DNA of 64,000 bases. It comes from an uncultured Alphaproteobacteria bacterium. Lineage in GTDB: Bacteria > Pseudomonadota > Alphaproteobacteria > Rhizobiales > Aestuariivirgaceae. The stretch lies in contig CALMZX010000144.1 of NCBI GenBank assembly GCA_937870685.1, forward strand, positions 859 through 64,858. Reading direction: 5' to 3'. Shown one piece after another: positions 24,994 to 46,452 of this stretch (positions within the stretch are counted from its first letter, which is position 1; every line of letters begins with the position of its first letter). The position numbers and the translations under genes were made by a program. The notes under the pieces are model-generated. The model was not told where the DNA came from. It saw only the letters and a list, made by a program, of their open reading frames with translations, and made no database searches.

Positions 24994-25059
24994 GGCTGTC
25001 ATTCCCGTATTAAGAATTAAGGCACACTACGCTCTTGACTCTGGGCAGGGTTCGTGACA

Positions 25060-25074
25060 GAACAAATGTAGAAC
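25060..25074 (+). promoter_or_regulatory. Alphaproteobacterial LexA (SOS) box
   Basis: GAAC-AAATGTA-GAAC (GAAC-N7-GAAC), 17 bp upstream of the imuA ATG. Confidence 0.88.
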
Positions 25075-25091
25075 ATTCTGGACATCCTGTC

Positions 25092-26072
25092 ATGCGTACC
25101 AACCCGATGCCCCTTCGGGCGGCGGTCGCGGCTTCGCGCCCGCCTGCCCCTTCGCCATCTGATCCTGCCGCGCCGACCACCCGGCCAGCACTTGCCAAAC
25201 CTGCCCTTGCCCGTGCCGTGCCGGAGCGGGAGGAGGCGCGGGCGCTCATTGCCCGGCTGCGGGAGCATCTGGCGCGTTCTGGTCCGGAGGAGAGGGGGAG
25301 GCAGCCTGTCCCGTCGCGCGCCCAGCGCCGGGAGGTCACCCCTTGGACCTTGGGGCTTGCGGACCTCGACAGGCACCTGCCGGAGGAGGGGCTGGCGGTT
25401 GCGGGCCTGCATGACATCTCGCCTGCGGCCTATGGCGACTTTCCGGCGGCCTGCGGTTTTGCCCTGGCGCTGGCCGTGCGGCGGCTGGCGGACAGCCGGG
25501 AGCGCCGCCCCGTTTTGTGGTGTCGTCTCGAAACTGAACAGCGGGAGTATGGCCATTGCTATGGCCATGGCGTGGCCGCTCTGGGGGTGCCACGGTCGCG
25601 CTTCCTGACCCTCAGCCTGAAGCGCCCGGTGGCCCTGCTCTGGACGGTGGAAGAGGCTTTGAAATCTGGCTGTTTATCAGTGGTTATCGGTGATGTTGCA
25701 ACGCAACATGCCGATCTCACGGCGACCCGGCGGCTGGCTCTTGCCGGACAGGCGGGAAGGGCATCCGGCATTATTGTATTGACTCGAAACTATATAGATT
25801 CAACGACCAGTTTCAGTCGATGGTGCGTTGCAACATCGCGCTCCCCACCCGCAGCATCGGACCCACGCGCTCCCGGCTCTCCGGTCTGGCAGGTCGGGCT
25901 CACCCGCATCCGGGGAGGCCGCCCCGGGGAGTGGTTTCTCAACTGGCAGAAAGATCATGCGCCGTCTCGTTTCACTCTGGTTCCCGGCTTTTCCGGTGGA
26001 GCGCTTCATCCGGGCGCGGCGGAAGGCCCGCGCTCCCGTGCCGCCACCGAGCCTGCCCTTCGCGCTGGTTGA
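25092..26072 (+). CDS. imuA: ImuA (RecA/SulA-like) mutagenesis protein
   Basis: LGLADLDRHLP..GL...LH, LWTVEEALKSG, TATRRLALA; first gene of the imu cassette. Confidence 0.85.
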   Translation: MRTNPMPLRAAVAASRPPAPSPSDPAAPTTRPALAKPALARAVPEREEARALIARLREHLARSGPEERGRQPVPSRAQRREVTPWTLGLADLDRHLPEEGLAVAGLHDISPAAYGDFPAACGFALALAVRRLADSRERRPVLWCRLETEQREYGHCYGHGVAALGVPRSRFLTLSLKRPVALLWTVEEALKSGCLSVVIGDVATQHADLTATRRLALAGQAGRASGIIVLTRNYIDSTTSFSRWCVATSRSPPAASDPRAPGSPVWQVGLTRIRGGRPGEWFLNWQKDHAPSRFTLVPGFSGGALHPGAAEGPRSRAATEPALRAG

Positions 26073-27462
26073 GCGCGGGGCCAAGGGCCTGCGCCTGGCG
26101 GCGGTCAATGCCGCGGCGCGGGAATTCGGCCTGATGCGCGGGCAGCGGCTGGCGGATGCCCGTGCCGCCGTGCCCGACCTTCTGAGCGAGGCGCATGAGC
26201 CGGAGCAGGATACGGCGAGTCTCCTCGGCCTGTGCCGCTGGATGGAGCGCTACAGCCCGTGGGTGGCGCCCGACCCGCCGGACGGCCTTCTCATGGAGGT
26301 GACCGGCATTCCCCATCTTTTCGGCGGCGAGGCGGCCATGCTGGCGGGCCTGAAGGCGCGGCTGACCGGTTATGGCTTCACGGCGCGCAGCGCCTGCGCC
26401 GGAACCATCGGCGCCGCCTGGGCACTGGCGCGCTACGGGCAGGACGGTGACGACAGCCTCAACGCTCTGCCGGTGGAGGCCTTGCGCATTGATGATGCCG
26501 CCGCCCGCACCCTGCGGCGACTCGGGCTCAAGAGCATCGGCGCGCTCACCAGCCTGCCACGGGCGAGCCTCGCCCGGCGCTTCCGGGGTGAAAGCATCCA
26601 CGAGAATGTGCTGTTGCGCCTCGACGAGCTGCTGGGCACGCGGGCCGAGCCGCTCAATGCCATCAACCCGCCGGGGTCGGTGATGGCACACCGGGCCTTC
26701 ATGGAACCGGTGATCACCCATGAGGGGCTGGTGAGCGTGCTGCGCGGGCTTTCGGGCGAGGTGGCCCGGGCGCTGGAGGCGCGTGGCGAAGGGGCGCTGC
26801 GTCTCATCCTCAAGCTGTTCCGCAGCGACGGGGGGCGGGTGCAGGTGCCGGTGGGCCTGACCGCGCCATCACATGAGGGCGGGCATCTCTTCCGCCTGCT
26901 CTCGCCCCGGCTTGAGACGCTTGATGCGGGCTTCGGCATTGATGCCATGACGCTGGAGGTGCGCGAGGCGGGGGCCGCCGTGGCGCGGCAGTATGGTTTC
27001 ATGGAAGAGAGTGCCGACACCAGCCTCTCCCAGCTCAATGACCGGGTGATGAACCGGCAGGGGCAGGAGATCACGCAGCTTGCCCCGGTTGAAAGCCACA
27101 TTCCGGAACGCTCGGAAGAGGCCCGTGCCATCGGCGCGGTCCTGCCTGCGACTGTGGGCGGCCTGCCGGAGCGGCCGCTGATGATCTTTGCCCCGCCGCA
27201 GCCGGCGCGCGTCATTGCCGCTGTTCCCGATGGCCCGCCGATGTCGCTCACCTGGCGGCGGGTGACGCGGCGCATTCTCCGTCATGCCGGGCCGGAGCGC
27301 ATCGCGCCGGAGTGGTGGCGCGGCGAAACGGGTGAGCGGCCGCGCGACTACTACATGGTGGAGGACGAGCAGGGCCGCCGCTACTGGCTGTTCCGCGAGG
27401 GGCTCTACGGCGAGGAGGCAGGCCCGCCGCCAAAATGGTTCGTGCACGGATTATCGGCGTGA
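25957..27462 (+). CDS. imuB: ImuB (inactive Y-family polymerase)
   Basis: RYSPWVAPDPPDGL, LFGGE, LPVEALRI, GPERIAPEWW, RDYY.VEDEQGRRYWLFR. Confidence 0.93.
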   Translation: MRRLVSLWFPAFPVERFIRARRKARAPVPPPSLPFALVERGAKGLRLAAVNAAAREFGLMRGQRLADARAAVPDLLSEAHEPEQDTASLLGLCRWMERYSPWVAPDPPDGLLMEVTGIPHLFGGEAAMLAGLKARLTGYGFTARSACAGTIGAAWALARYGQDGDDSLNALPVEALRIDDAAARTLRRLGLKSIGALTSLPRASLARRFRGESIHENVLLRLDELLGTRAEPLNAINPPGSVMAHRAFMEPVITHEGLVSVLRGLSGEVARALEARGEGALRLILKLFRSDGGRVQVPVGLTAPSHEGGHLFRLLSPRLETLDAGFGIDAMTLEVREAGAAVARQYGFMEESADTSLSQLNDRVMNRQGQEITQLAPVESHIPERSEEARAIGAVLPATVGGLPERPLMIFAPPQPARVIAAVPDGPPMSLTWRRVTRRILRHAGPERIAPEWWRGETGERPRDYYMVEDEQGRRYWLFREGLYGEEAGPPPKWFVHGLSA

Positions 27463-27469
27463 GACTGCC

Positions 27470-30400
27470 ATGAGCCGCTATGCCGAACTCGCCACAGCCA
27501 CGAACTTCTCCTTCCTGCATGGCGGTTCCCATGCCGAGGAACTGGTGTTGCAGGCCAAACACTTGGGGATCGCGGCGCTGGCCGTGACTGACCGCAACAG
27601 CTTTGCCGGAATCGTCCGGGCCCACGGGGCGGCGAAGGATGCGGACTTGCGCTTCGTGGTTGGCGTGCGGCTGGTGCTCGAGGACGGATGCGAACTGCTC
27701 GCCTGGCCCACGGACCGGCAGGCCTATGGCCGCTTGTGCCGCCTGCTCTCGCTGGGGCAACGGCGGGCGGAAAAGGGCGGCTGCATCCTCGCGCTGGCGG
27801 ATGTCTGTGAACATGCTGAGGGCACGCTCTTCGCCCTGCCACAGGCGCATGTGGCGCAGCTGGGGGACGTGCGGCGGCTGCTTCCGGCGCCACTCTATCT
27901 GGCGCTCTCCTGCCGCTTCGATGGCCGCGACCGCACCCGGCTGGCGGAGGCGGCCGCCGTGGCGCGGGCACAGGGCGCAGGCCTTCTGGCCGTGAATGAC
28001 GTGCTCTATCACCATCCGGACCGCCGCCCCTTGCAGGACGTGCTCACCTGCATCCGCGAGAAGGTGACGATTGCCGAGGCGGGCTACAGGCTGCAGGCCA
28101 ATGCCGAGCGGCATCTCAAGACGCCGGATGAAATGGCGCGGCTGTTCCGGGATTATCCCGAAGCGCTCGCCAACACGCTTGTGATCACGGAGGCCTGCCG
28201 CTTCTCGCTCGATGAACTGCGCTACGAATATCCGGAAGAGCCGGTGCCACAGGGCCAGGATCCGCAAGGCTATCTGGAACATCTGGCGCGGGAAGGTGCC
28301 ATGGAGCGCTATCCGCAAGGTGTTCCCGCCAAGGTGCGCCAGAACATCGCCAAGGAACTGGCGCTGATCCGCAAGCTCAACTACGCGCCCTACTTCCTCA
28401 CCGTTTATGACATCGTGCGCTTTGCCCGCAGCCTTGATCCGCCGATCCTCTGCCAGGGGCGGGGTTCGGCGGCCAATTCCACGGTCTGCTATGTGATCGG
28501 CATCACGGCGGTTGATCCCAACCAGATCGATCTCCTGTTCGAGCGCTTCATCTCGGAGGAGCGCAAGGAACCGCCGGACATTGATGTCGATTTCGAGCAC
28601 GAGCGGCGCGAGGAGGTGATCCAGTATCTCTACCGCCGCTATGGCCGGGAGCGGGCAGGCCTCGCCGCCACGGTGATCACCTATCGCGGGCGCTCGGCAC
28701 TGCGCGAGGTGGGGAAAGTGATGGGACTTTCGGAAGACGTGACCGGGGCACTCGCCGGCTCGGTCTGGGGCATGATGCCGGAGGAGATGCAGGAGAAGCG
28801 GCTGAAGGAGATCGGGCTTGATCCGGATGATCCGCTGCTCGCCCGCGTGCTGGAACTGACGGGCGAGATTGCCGGCTTCCCGCGCCATCTCTCGCAGCAT
28901 GTGGGCGGCTTCATCCTGACACGCGAGCGGCTGGACGAGACGGTGCCCATCGGCAATGCGGCCATGGAAGACCGCACCTTCATCGAATGGGACAAGGACG
29001 ACATTGACACGCTGGGCATGCTCAAGGTGGATGTGCTGGCCTTGGGCATGCTCACTTGCATCCGCAAGAGTTTCGAGCTGATCGAGGCCTGGCACGGGCA
29101 GCGCTACATGCTCGCCACCGTGCCGCGCGAGGACCGGACTGTGTATGACATGCTGTGCAAGGCCGACTCGGTCGGTGTCTTCCAGGTGGAATCGCGGGCC
29201 CAGATGAACATGCTGCCGCGCCTCAAACCGCGTTGCTTCTATGATCTGGTGATCGAGGTGGCGATCGTGCGGCCCGGCCCGATCCAGGGTGACATGGTGC
29301 ATCCCTATCTCAGGCGGCGCGATGGCATTGAGGCGGAGGATTATCCGGCACCGCATCCGGACTTCGGGCCGCCGGATGAATTGCGGCAGGTGCTGGGCCG
29401 CACCAAGGGTGTGCCCTTGTTCCAGGAGCAGGCGATGAAGCTCGCCATGGTGGCGGCGGAGTTCACACCTGGCGAACTGAACGAGTTGCGCAAGGCCATG
29501 GCCACCTTCCGGCGGCGCGGCACCATTGGGCGGCTGGAACAGAAAATGGTGAGCCGCATGGTGGAACGCGGCTACGATGCCGGCTTCGCGGCGCGCTGCT
29601 TCAACCAGATCAAGGGCTTCGGCGAATACGGCTTCCCGGAAAGCCACGCCGCGAGCTTCGCGCATCTGGTCTATGTCTCGGCCTGGCTGAAGCGCCACCA
29701 CCCGGCAGTGTTCGCCTGTGCGCTGCTGAATTCACAACCCATGGGCTTCTATGCCCCGGCGCAGATCGTGCGGGACGCGCGCGAGCATGGGGTTGAGGTG
29801 CTGCCGGTGGATGTGAGTCATTCGCAGTGGGATTCGGTGCTGGAGGAAAGGCCCCCCTCAGTCCTTCGGACAGCTCCCCCAACAAGTTGGGGGAGCGTGA
29901 TGAAACGCCCTCCCCCAGCTTTGCTGGGGGAGGTGCCCAACGGGCGGAGGGGGTCCCTTTGCCTGCGCCTCGGCTTTCGTGAGGTGGATGGGGTGCGGGA
30001 GGGGGATGTCGTGTCCATTCTCCCCTCCCCGCAAGGGCGAGGGAGGACAACAACACTGGCCGAAATGGCGGCGCTTCTCCCCCACTCCGCCCTCGAAAAA
30101 CTCGCTGCTGCCGATTGCTTCCGGTCGCTGGGTCTCGACCGCAGGCAGGCGTTGTGGGAGGTGACGGCGCTGGCCAAGGCGCGGACTCCCTTGCCGCTCT
30201 TCGCCCATGCTGATGCGAAGGAGCAGGGCATGGAAGCAGCGGTGCAACTGCCGGAGATGCCGCTCGCCGAGCATGTGGTCAACGACTACCAGACGGTGAA
30301 GCTGTCGCTGAAGGCGCATCCCATGTCCTTCCTGCGGGGGCGTTGTGCGGCTGAAAAGGTGACGGACAACGGCGTGCTCAAGTCGCTGCGCAATGGCCGC

Positions 30401-30799
30401 GCCGTGACTGTGGCGGGCGTGGTGCTGGTGCGGCAGCGGCCGGGCTCGGCCAAGGGAGTTGTCTTCCTCACGCTGGAAGACGAGTTCTCCGTCTGCAACG
30501 CGGTGATCTGGCCGGATGTGCTGGAGGCGCACCGCGCCACGGTGATGGGCGCGCGGCTGATGCTGATCCGCGGCCGGGTGCAACGCTCGGGCGACATCAT
30601 CCATGTGGTCGCCAGCCGCATCGAGGACAAGACCTTCTGGCTCACGTCACTCACGGAAGACGGCCTCACCCTGCGTGGCACCGTGGCGCGCGCCGATGAG
30701 GTGAAGAAGCCGGGGCCGGACCCGGCGCAGTACCAGCAAAGCTCAACCCGGCACCCCCGCAATGTGCGGGTGTTGCCGAAGAGCCGGGATTTTCATTGA
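27470..30799 (+). CDS. dnaE2: Error-prone DNA polymerase III alpha (contains in-frame palindromic repeat insertion)
   Basis: NFSFLHGGSH PHP domain, GRGSAANS, PPDIDVDFE, LSQHVGG, YGFPESHAASF, OB fold, C-terminal SRDFH. Confidence 0.96.
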   Translation: MSRYAELATATNFSFLHGGSHAEELVLQAKHLGIAALAVTDRNSFAGIVRAHGAAKDADLRFVVGVRLVLEDGCELLAWPTDRQAYGRLCRLLSLGQRRAEKGGCILALADVCEHAEGTLFALPQAHVAQLGDVRRLLPAPLYLALSCRFDGRDRTRLAEAAAVARAQGAGLLAVNDVLYHHPDRRPLQDVLTCIREKVTIAEAGYRLQANAERHLKTPDEMARLFRDYPEALANTLVITEACRFSLDELRYEYPEEPVPQGQDPQGYLEHLAREGAMERYPQGVPAKVRQNIAKELALIRKLNYAPYFLTVYDIVRFARSLDPPILCQGRGSAANSTVCYVIGITAVDPNQIDLLFERFISEERKEPPDIDVDFEHERREEVIQYLYRRYGRERAGLAATVITYRGRSALREVGKVMGLSEDVTGALAGSVWGMMPEEMQEKRLKEIGLDPDDPLLARVLELTGEIAGFPRHLSQHVGGFILTRERLDETVPIGNAAMEDRTFIEWDKDDIDTLGMLKVDVLALGMLTCIRKSFELIEAWHGQRYMLATVPREDRTVYDMLCKADSVGVFQVESRAQMNMLPRLKPRCFYDLVIEVAIVRPGPIQGDMVHPYLRRRDGIEAEDYPAPHPDFGPPDELRQVLGRTKGVPLFQEQAMKLAMVAAEFTPGELNELRKAMATFRRRGTIGRLEQKMVSRMVERGYDAGFAARCFNQIKGFGEYGFPESHAASFAHLVYVSAWLKRHHPAVFACALLNSQPMGFYAPAQIVRDAREHGVEVLPVDVSHSQWDSVLEERPPSVLRTAPPTSWGSVMKRPPPALLGEVPNGRRGSLCLRLGFREVDGVREGDVVSILPSPQGRGRTTTLAEMAALLPHSALEKLAAADCFRSLGLDRRQALWEVTALAKARTPLPLFAHADAKEQGMEAAVQLPEMPLAEHVVNDYQTVKLSLKAHPMSFLRGRCAAEKVTDNGVLKSLRNGRAVTVAGVVLVRQRPGSAKGVVFLTLEDEFSVCNAVIWPDVLEAHRATVMGARLMLIRGRVQRSGDIIHVVASRIEDKTFWLTSLTEDGLTLRGTVARADEVKKPGPDPAQYQQSSTRHPRNVRVLPKSRDFH
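29847..29960. repeat. Bipartite palindromic repeat copy 1 (A + inverted B), inside dnaE2
   Basis: 29851-29897 is the exact 47-nt reverse complement of 46395-46441; the B half matches 46337-46382 and 37600-37645. Confidence 0.9.
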
Positions 30800-37599: not shown

Positions 37600-37737
37600 C
37601 CCCCTCCGGCCTGTCGGCCACCTCCCCCAACGAGTTGGGGGAGGGCATTTGACCAGCACCACGCTATGGCAATGAGACAACGCATACAATCACGCTCCCT
37701 CAACTTGTTGGAGGAGCTGTCCGAAGGACTGAGGGGG
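37600..37737. repeat. Bipartite palindromic repeat copy 2 (between convergent genes, longer spacer)
   Basis: B half at 37600-37645; inverted A half at 37693-37737 (43/45 identical to copy 3). Confidence 0.88.
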
Positions 37738-37742
37738 TTCCT

Positions 37743-38978
37743 CTACCCCACCCATTCGCCCTTGCGCATGAGGGCTTCGGCTTTTCCGTCCTTTGCGATG
37801 CCATCCACATCCAGTTCACCCGAGCCGATCATCCAGTCCACGTGGATGAGGGAGGTGTTCATGCCGGCCGCGAGCTTCTGTTCGGCTGACAGGGTGGCCG
37901 TGCCTTCCATGTTCTGGGCATAGGCCTGGCCCACGGCGATGTGGCTTGCGGCGTTCTCGTCGTAGAGGGTTTCGCTGAAGATGATGCCGGAGGCCGAGAT
38001 GGGCGAGGAGTGCGGCACGAGGGCCACTTCGCCGAGGCGGGCGGCGCCGTCGTCGGTCTCGATCATCTTGCGGAACACGTCGCCGCCTTTCTCCGCCGTG
38101 CCCTCGACGATGCGGCCCTTCTCGAAGCGCACGGAGATGCCGTCGATCAGCGAGCCCTGATAGGACAGCGGTTTTGTTGAACGCACGATGCCATCCACCC
38201 GCTCGCGGTGCGGCATGGTGAAGACCTCTTCCGAGGGGATGTTGGGATTGCAGAGGATGCCGTTGCGCGCCGTCGAAGCGCCGCCGGCCCAGACGTGGTT
38301 GTCCACGAGGCCGAGGGTGAAGTCGGTGCCGGGGCCTTTGTACTTCAACGCGGCATAGCGTTTTTCATTCAGCATCTTCACGCGGGCATGCAGCGTGGCG
38401 TTGTGGTGCTTCCATGCCGCCACCGGATCGGGTTGGTCGGCACGGGTGCATTTGAAGATGGCGGCCCAGAGGGCGGCGAGTGCCTGTTCCGGTGGCAGGT
38501 TCGGGAAGACCGACCTGGCATGGGAGGGGGTTGCAGCCGAGACCACGCACCAGTTGGTGGCAAATGCGGTGATCTGCTCGATCACCGGCTTGTAGGCCCT
38601 GGAGCGGGCGCGATTGGCACGGGAGACGTGTTCCGGGTTTTCGTTGGAGAGCAGCGAGGGGTCTTCGCCGATGATGGCAAGGCGCGCCGTCGAACCATCG
38701 CGGAAGGCTTCGGCCATGCCGTTGAAGAGCCATGCGGGTGCTGCATCAAAGGCTGCCTCGTGGCCGAGGCGGTAGCGCATGAGCGCGGTCTGCTCGTCGC
38801 TGTAGAGCGTGGTGACGAGAGAGGCTCCGGCGGCATAGGCGTGGTGGGTGACGCGGCGCACGAGGTCAACAGCTTCCAGCGGCGCCGTCACCAGAACCTG
38901 TTGCCCGGCACGGATGTTGAGGCCGGAGCGGATGATGAGTTCGGCGTAGCGGTCGAGAAGCTGATCGTGGGATGTCAT
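37743..38978 (-). CDS. Aminopeptidase, M29 family (AmpS/PepS-like)
   Basis: NIPSEEVFT, LGEVALVP, LYDENAASHIAVG, NTSLIHVDWMIG. Confidence 0.93.
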   Translation of the reverse strand: MTSHDQLLDRYAELIIRSGLNIRAGQQVLVTAPLEAVDLVRRVTHHAYAAGASLVTTLYSDEQTALMRYRLGHEAAFDAAPAWLFNGMAEAFRDGSTARLAIIGEDPSLLSNENPEHVSRANRARSRAYKPVIEQITAFATNWCVVSAATPSHARSVFPNLPPEQALAALWAAIFKCTRADQPDPVAAWKHHNATLHARVKMLNEKRYAALKYKGPGTDFTLGLVDNHVWAGGASTARNGILCNPNIPSEEVFTMPHRERVDGIVRSTKPLSYQGSLIDGISVRFEKGRIVEGTAEKGGDVFRKMIETDDGAARLGEVALVPHSSPISASGIIFSETLYDENAASHIAVGQAYAQNMEGTATLSAEQKLAAGMNTSLIHVDWMIGSGELDVDGIAKDGKAEALMRKGEWVG

Positions 38979-46327: not shown

Positions 46328-46452
46328 GTGGAAGGGCCCCCTCCGGCCTTCGGCCACCTCCCCCAGCAAAGCTGAGGGAGGGTGAAACCCCGCGCGCTCC
46401 CCCAACTTGTTGGGGGAGCTGTCCGAAGGACTGAGGGGGGCAATTGGTTCAT
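46324..46452 (-). CDS. 42-aa repeat-derived mini-ORF overlapping the hisH stop and the hisA start (translation unproven)
   Basis: [42 protein letters not shown]; ATGA overlaps at both ends; below the ORF-track cut-off. Confidence 0.35.
46334..46441. repeat. Bipartite palindromic repeat copy 3 (between hisH and hisA)
   Basis: B half at 46337-46382, inverted A half at 46395-46441; inverted homologue of 29851-29957. Confidence 0.9.

Follow-up and report, generated by a model that had tools for sequence, protein, structure and literature searches.

The stretch of DNA analysed here (the window) comprises 64,000 nt of contig CALMZX010000144.1 from an uncultured alphaproteobacterium of the family Aestuariivirgaceae, and it carries dnaE2, the gene for an error-prone DNA polymerase, with a palindromic repeat element lying in frame inside it. 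A sequence-only reading of the window had described a 114-nt element at 29847-29960 with imperfect terminal inverted repeats, translated within DnaE2 without a stop, and the sequence reads as claimed, with the frame staying open to the terminal residues SRDFH. From the comparisons described below we consider it probable that a still-functional, non-essential, damage-induced DnaE2 tolerates here a selfish hairpin repeat in the form of a disordered loop, at one of three recurrent sinks for such repeats. The gene and the parts of the element are as follows:

27470..30799, plus strand: dnaE2, error-prone DNA polymerase, 1109 aa counted from M63 of the longest open reading frame (ORF), assigned from Pfam domains, structure matches and the names of orthologues.
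29847..29960, plus strand: the repeat element including its AAAGG/CCTTT flanks, 114 nt or 38 codons.
29853..29897, plus strand: left or A-type unit, made of CCCCCTC, a small hairpin GTCC-TTC-GGAC and a long hairpin GCTCCCCCAAC-AAG-TTGGGGGAGC, from the family alignment and the consensus fold.
29898..29907, plus strand: variable spacer between the two units, ranging from 7 to about 60 nt in the other copies of the family alignment.
29908..29953, plus strand: right or B-type unit, related to the left one, inverted and ending in GAGGGGG, from the alignment and the consensus fold.

The longest ORF (27284-30799, plus strand) is free of stop codons through the element and ends in ...PKSRDFH; the representative of its protein cluster, P0002, starts at M63 and has 1109 aa, and its orthologues are annotated as error-prone DNA polymerase. 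All five DnaE2 domains (PHP, DNA_pol3_alpha (NTPase), finger, HHH_6 and OB) were found with Pfam, the comparison with structures of the DNA polymerase III (Pol III) alpha subunit gave a match at 2e-97, and the catalytic motifs PDIDVDF and WDKDD are conserved with the catalytic Asp residues intact. A separate replicative DnaE1 of 1140 aa, about 33% identical to DnaE2, is encoded on another contig (C121:9123-12542).

The element runs from the left end AAAGGCCCCCCTC to the right end GAGGGGGTCCCTTT, the reverse complement of which is AAAGGGACCCCCTC (29847-29960), and includes a core of 101 nt (29853-29953), CCCCCTC...GAGGGGG, which the family alignment shows to be common to all members. Spelled out in full, the left unit is CCCCCTC-AGTCC-TTC-GGACA-GCTCCCCCAAC-AAG-TTGGGGGAGCG. 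The consensus fold of 14 short copies, obtained with RNAalifold, consists of four hairpins closed by a CCCCCTC/GAGGGGG stem, and compensatory double changes were observed at 7 of its 36 pairs, mostly within the two small hairpins. For the 151 nt around the insert the predicted RNA fold reached -88.8 kcal/mol (z = -5.0 versus dinucleotide shuffles). The CCCCCTC/GAGGGGG terminal inverted repeats are present in every full copy and are frequently extended by AAGG/CCTT: AAGG precedes the C-run by 0-2 nt at 16 of 36 A-type (44%) and 5 of 17 B-type (29%) unit ends, as compared with 2.2% of 872 control C-runs, and in three orthologues bearing different inserts it coincides with native GAG-GAA-(A)GG codons. 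The AAAGG/CCTTT flank could thus be either the end of the element or a target that it prefers, AAGG being enriched at both outer ends and also part of native codons. None of the family units carries the GTAG or CGTC tag of the published repetitive extragenic palindromic (REP) superfamilies, and an Rfam scan of the window, with three copies of the family inside it, returned no family at the gathering score.

That the element is an insertion follows from the alignment with DnaE2 of close relatives, a check that had been proposed together with the original description. The insert is absent from all the species representatives examined in GTDB for the genus, about 40 in number; when 40 relatives were searched in six frames, nearly all DnaE2 matches broke at query residues about 855 and 889, and the aligned relatives have a short turn at this point versus 38 residues in the window. 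In the nearest insert-free orthologues the turn has 4-6 residues, and the two closest of them (85% identical) read LEE-EGRT-LRLG and LED-QGRA-LRLG. Removal of 102 nt from the window sequence leaves LEE-RSLC-LRLG, equal in length to the insert-free orthologues, so that the net gain over these orthologues is 34 codons (102 nt) and not 38; the element as delimited stands at 114 nt and 38 codons, and the core shared by the family is 101 nt. Further genomes of the genus, several family-rich ones among them, are without the insert or without dnaE2, and relatives lacking the repeat family do not share the sequence of the loop. The inserted DNA itself is 79-89% identical to intergenic copies elsewhere in its own genome.

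The closest references with an empty loop at this site are the relatives G007 and G024. We observed in the G024 gene (loci L005 / L023) a change of frame about 25 codons upstream of the loop, GVEVLPA and PDVSYS being read in separate frames; either the gene is frameshifted or a 1-nt sequencing error is responsible. In G007 (locus L004) the loop of the PHP domain bears a different palindromic insert of about 38 residues, of the SPLAGEGAERQRSGRG... type.

The insertion site lies within Pfam HHH_6, the helix-hairpin-helix (HhH) domain, where 121 residues were matched to a profile of 90 positions, and corresponds to the interval between residues about 818 and 835 of E. coli Pol III alpha. In order to place it in a structure, an AlphaFold2 (AF2) model with a mean predicted local distance difference test (pLDDT) of 76 was built on 52 orthologues, which had been taken from a search of 5.8 billion proteins and chosen by words shared with the query region. 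In this model strands 790-793 and 830-833 (P0002 numbering) flank the unstructured residues 796-827; the pLDDT of the insert is around 30 (<50), and that of the flanking 10-residue blocks about 90. The structure prediction asked for by the sequence-only reading thus gave an unstructured insert, and the variable loop that it had placed beside the HhH motif was located inside HHH_6, where the insert is predicted to form a disordered excursion at the tip of a β-hairpin.

The assembly to which the window belongs is an Aestuariivirga-like metagenome-assembled genome (MAG) of 3.29 Mb in 155 contigs, fragmented, with 62% G+C and 92% completeness; the names under which close orthologues are recorded indicate Aestuariivirga, of the order Hyphomicrobiales/Rhizobiales. 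A 34-nt probe from the element detected a second copy in the window at 46412-46445 (minus strand), where 0 are expected by chance, and a repeat search of the window gave three family copies, namely the one in dnaE2 and the following two:

37600..37737, minus strand: second copy in the window, of the long-spacer form, intergenic, just 3′ of a gene ending at 37743.
46337..46439, minus strand: third copy in the window, filling the short gap between a hisH-like stop (46449) and a hisA-like ATG.

An open frame passes through the 46337-46439 copy into the hisA-like gene. Over the whole assembly, iterated nhmmer gave 48 non-overlapping matches, about 33 of them full length and about 13 single units, and the true copy number must be above 48 because four matches abut contig ends. 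The copies lie nearly all outside genes; verified genes hold only 2 of the 48, one being dnaE2 and the other a gene for an S-adenosylmethionine methyltransferase of the Rsm22 family (PF09243, 2e-72; G000 contig C121:2216-2266, locus L041), in which a single unit is in frame directly after AAGGA and the corresponding loop is 11 residues shorter in seven relatives of the genus. Ten other long ORFs spanning copies have no Pfam match and were set aside as spurious frames of a G+C-rich genome. The family was found in 11 of 37 genomes of the genus and in 0 of 24 other genera of the order.

A single homologue of Y1 transposases (IS200-like or like the REP-associated tyrosine transposases, RAYT; COG1943-type) was detected in the MAG, at C2:3339-3653 on the minus strand (locus L025; PF01797, 33.8 bits), as a 229-aa open frame with the motif HVHLI. 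The flanking sequence, about 1.3 kb to each side, contains no family motif, and 0 of the 48 family matches are on its 6-kb contig. A RAYT link, or a REPtron, is consequently not claimable, this sole Y1_Tnp-like gene having no family motif adjoining it.

We then considered the selection acting on the gene and on the inserted sequence. With P0003, 93% identical to the window protein, dN/dS is 0.10 for the whole gene and 0.12 downstream of the insert (dS 0.27). A second orthologue, P0122, represented by five contigs, the longest of 295 kb, in assemblies of the Joint Genome Institute (JGI), has 95% amino acid identity and carries the same insert in the same place; outside the insert, dS to P0122 is 0.229 and the ratio dN/dS (omega) 0.12. 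The sequence-only reading had left room for a pseudogene, and this is contradicted by the purifying selection on the gene (omega 0.10-0.12). Because the same insert is present in the independent P0122 lineage and omega is 0.12, these sequence comparisons would exclude both a pseudogene and an assembly artefact.

The peptide encoded by the insert is not conserved in the same way. At the same position the insert of P0003 is a different one of 44 residues, P0004 carries a further one (common to the GTDB genome G063) and P0005 yet another, all of them G+C-rich palindromes of the same general plan with folds of -79 to -107 kcal/mol. The P0003 insert is 73% identical to that of the window and no closer to it than to the other copies of the window genome (70-76%), the order of its units is apparently reversed (B-type first), and over the aligned insert codons dN/dS between the window and P0003 is about 1.6. 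Independent insertion or replacement is favoured over descent for these two lineages by the sequences, because of this apparent reversal in P0003 and because the window copy is more similar to those of its own genome; an identity of 73% equally fits neutral decay at dS 0.27. Intergenic copies encode the same-frame peptide as well. The proposal that a repeat had driven the creation of new protein sequence holds as to the insertion, which is real; the new sequence behaves as an unconstrained disordered loop and not as a functional peptide.

Among the 52 orthologues, the HhH loop has 20-63 residues in 26 and 3-12 in the other 26, and the palindromic inserts found in it stem from several different families. 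The PHP-domain loop (VVGxRL...LLAYPT) has 41-53 residues in 18 of 52, and a third loop, which follows the HhH hairpin at a distance of about 20 residues, has 38-71 residues in 12 of 52. At least one insert at the three loops is present in 32 of 52 orthologues and none in 20, figures that are not unbiased frequencies because the sample was chosen by words shared with the query region. In a tree for which the loop regions had been masked, genes with and without inserts are intermixed right up to the terminal branches. The pair P0008/P0021 (loci L055/L056), the genes of which are 96-98% identical, carries the same element (98.3% over 115 nt) in the HhH loop of one and in the PHP loop of the other. 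The HhH loop is thus, on these alignments, a recurrent hot spot for hairpin repeats in the genus. As a control, DnaE1 was searched in 41 genomes of the genus; all complete matches are single and full-length (3384-3438 nt), and no insert of such size was found.

Exact insertion boundaries were sought with G007, G024 and the P0008/P0021 pair; as the alleles with and without the element differ in short replaced stretches (9 and 21 nt), they allow no clean boundaries to be drawn. The 'empty' HhH loop of the P0008/P0021 pair contains a scar-like 21-nt mini-palindrome, TCGCCCTCGCGCGAAGGTGAT. In the window gene itself, a small palindrome, CTCCCCTCCCCGCAAGGGCGAGGGAGG, is located at 30020-30047, at the third hot-spot loop, where it encodes ...LPSPQGRGR...; it may be the relic of an older insertion.

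Upstream of dnaE2 the window contains the following features:

25060..25074, plus strand: candidate LexA (SOS) box GAACAAATGTAGAAC, 18-19 nt upstream of the ATG at 25093.
25093..26072, plus strand: imuA-like gene, the first of the cassette, assigned from its position and from the same gene order in orthologous loci, with no Pfam match.
25828..27462, plus strand: homologue of imuB-like Y-family polymerases (PF00817 IMS, 2.2e-7; PF11799, 1.6e-4), the true start of which is probably 3′ of 25828.

The imuB-like ORF ends at 27462, 8 nt before the start of dnaE2, and the imuB orthologues have 478-509 aa; the function of the imuA-like gene is presumed. The motif GTTC-N7-GTTC is the alphaproteobacterial LexA motif, and GAACAAATGTAGAAC is taken by us to fit it. 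In either notation (GTTC-N7-GTTC or GAAC-N7-GAAC) the pattern has one match in the window versus 1.65 expected, so that the argument rests on position and not on count. The region 25035-25093 is promoter-like, with TTGACT, then 19 nt on GAACAAATGTAGAAC, and then the ATG at 25093, and would serve imuA-imuB-dnaE2 with a candidate SOS box. From this arrangement dnaE2 appears to be the last gene of an imuA-imuB-dnaE2 cassette preceded by a candidate SOS box, and it would be non-essential and SOS-repressed; dnaE2 is dispensable in many bacteria.

The explanation that we prefer starts from a palindrome made of two inverted units of ~45 nt, similar to a REPIN (a pair of inverted REP sequences) or to a miniature inverted-repeat transposable element (MITE), which would have inserted in the β-hairpin turn at the start of the DnaE2 HhH domain. 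The insert would be translated as a surface-protruding disordered loop of about 34 residues, because the length gained is divisible by three and no stop occurs in this frame of the G+C-rich element, and the polymerase would stay functional. It would then persist because the loop tolerates extra residues and dnaE2 is probably non-essential and SOS-repressed, the peptide itself having presumably no function. The same tolerance filter, possibly with an insertion preference for AAGG, may make the three loops recurrent landing sites across the genus.

Several observations weigh against this explanation. The insert is conserved as DNA beyond what is expected of a neutral passenger: between the window and P0122 it shows 1 difference in 108 nt, located in a hairpin loop, where the third-position rate predicts about 16 and the gene average about 7. 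No target-site duplication was seen, 27 of 30 full copies being without a direct repeat of at least 2 nt at their junctions, and no transposase tied to the family was found in the MAG. The empty sites of P0008/P0021 differ from the filled ones by 21 and 9 nt of replaced sequence, with neither clean excision nor duplication. Lastly, we infer the translation of the insert from the open frame and from the purifying selection downstream of it. As to the conservation, a long local recombination tract around the insert is opposed by the nearest differences between the window and P0122, which lie 13 nt before and 4 nt after it (-13 and +4 nt); a tract of about 120 nt is possible.

One alternative is a role of the hairpin itself, kept as a nucleic-acid element in dnaE2, either as an mRNA structure that slows translation or sets half-life and thereby limits the mutagenic polymerase, or as a DNA cruciform or protein-binding site, the peptide being a by-product. 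Such a role would agree with the very stable fold, with the covariation of the stems within the family, with a single difference in 108 nt at dS 0.23, with the strong hairpins (-79 to -107 kcal/mol) retained by all the orthologues that have different inserts, and with the recurrence of independent repeat families at the same loops. The hairpin is nevertheless dispensable, since all three sites are free of inserts in 20 of the 52 close orthologues; 7% of the 108-nt windows in dnaE2 are as conserved between the window and P0122 as the insert is, and its conservation may stem from selfish maintenance, from gene conversion among copies or from recent recombination over a short tract. We judge this alternative to be quite unlikely. 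A role of the product, in which the proline-rich inserted peptide (...RPPPALLGE) would have been co-opted as an interaction surface of the mutasome, for instance with ImuB, the beta clamp or DNA, seems very unlikely to us: the site does adjoin the HhH DNA-binding motif, upstream of the clamp-binding region, and the peptide is conserved in P0122, where one of its 34 residues is substituted, but the 93%-identical P0003 has an unrelated peptide there with dN/dS of about 1.6 over the aligned insert codons, AF2 gives the insert no structure, other orthologues bear many unrelated peptides or none, and intergenic copies yield the peptide of the same frame.

A decaying pseudogene, or an artefact of assembly at a repeat, is scarcely credible. 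The MAG is fragmented and has repeat copies at contig ends, and the dispensability of dnaE2 in many bacteria would make decay conceivable; against this stand the intact 1109-aa ORF with all its domains, an omega of 0.10-0.12 that extends downstream of the insert, the identical insert architecture in the independent JGI assemblies and the two junctions, both in frame with the dnaE2 sequence. A minority reading, which we regard as unlikely, departs from tolerance altogether: dnaE2, and perhaps the mutasome operon generally, would be a preferred sink or target for hairpin repeats and not a tolerant bystander, with insertion linked either to the state of the locus or to its product being active (through template switching or single-stranded DNA in the SOS response, for example, or through a preference for AAGG in the LEE codons), or with cells benefiting from hairpins that throttle a mutagenic polymerase. 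If this were true, the element would be maintained as a nucleic-acid module, and the near-identity at dS 0.23, the hairpins kept through sequence turnover, the reuse of three loops and the clean DnaE1 would all be explained.

Taken alone, a selfish palindrome tolerated in DnaE2 would be one more such repeat read as a harmless protein loop, as known from Rickettsia and from REP surveys, and the value of the case lies in its setting. Within a single genus one enzyme occurs in dozens of natural alleles, in which three defined loops have various inserts or none, and the allele series includes near-isogenic pairs having the same element at different sites as well as a paralogue, DnaE1, that is never hit. 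The system is suited to asking by what means repeats of this kind are mobilised when no transposase can be seen, where in a Pol III-type polymerase 30-60 additional residues are tolerated, and why genes of the SOS response and of repair hold their long-noted excess of intragenic repeats, be it through relaxed selection, targeting or regulation. It also carries a warning for annotation, as the length variation of DnaE2 and its 'low-complexity' patches rich in Pro, Gly and Arg are repeat-derived.

MITE-like repeats are not uncommonly fused in frame to host ORFs, Rickettsia palindromic elements (RPE) being the extreme (review PMC10969869), and intragenic REPs concentrate in genes of replication and repair (Di Nocera, De Gregorio & Rocco 2013, BMC Genomics 14:522, PMC3733652). 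The same survey reports a REP dimer in dnaE2 of Opitutus terrae (Oter_4053), where it encodes residues 934-971, a REP in dnaE2 of Sphingomonas wittichii (Swit_1119, residues 166-246), one in dnaE of R. conorii (residues 853-861), and different REPs at about one site in recB of two Xanthomonas species. No later paper dealing with repeats in dnaE2 came up in a full-text literature search.

As compared with known classes of repeats, the family resembles MITEs such as ERIC, Correia/NEMIS and BOX in its length of about 100 nt, its terminal inverted repeats, its strong fold and its occasional in-frame fusion with ORFs, and differs from them in being without a target-site duplication; no parent insertion sequence was identified, and no search for one was made. 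With REPINs it shares two inverted units with a spacer that can form one long hairpin, tens of copies that are mostly intergenic, and a sequence conserved beyond neutral expectation, whereas no RAYT is linked to the family, and typical REPs are smaller and less structured than its units. The analogy with RPE that had been drawn from the sequence is apt, inasmuch as both are palindromes translated in frame where the fold tolerates it, in an alphaproteobacterial host. In the account of Ogata et al. (2000, 2002) given by the review (PMC10969869), however, nearly half of the RPE copies of the first report are in ORFs, versus 2 of about 48 here, and each RPE family encodes a conserved peptide, whereas the peptide described here differs between orthologues; homology to RPE-1 to RPE-10 is unlikely because the family is confined to one non-rickettsial genus. 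The REPs surveyed by Di Nocera and colleagues are likewise short palindromes, mostly intergenic, often in inverted dimers and occasionally in frame in genes; the units described here are longer (~45 nt, with two hairpins each), have no GTAG/CGTC tag and often have AAGG preceding the C-run, and that survey does not describe several families reusing three defined DnaE2 loops throughout a genus while leaving DnaE1 free. In-frame palindromic repeats in dnaE2 are thus already published, and what the present case adds is the setting of a genus-wide hot spot.

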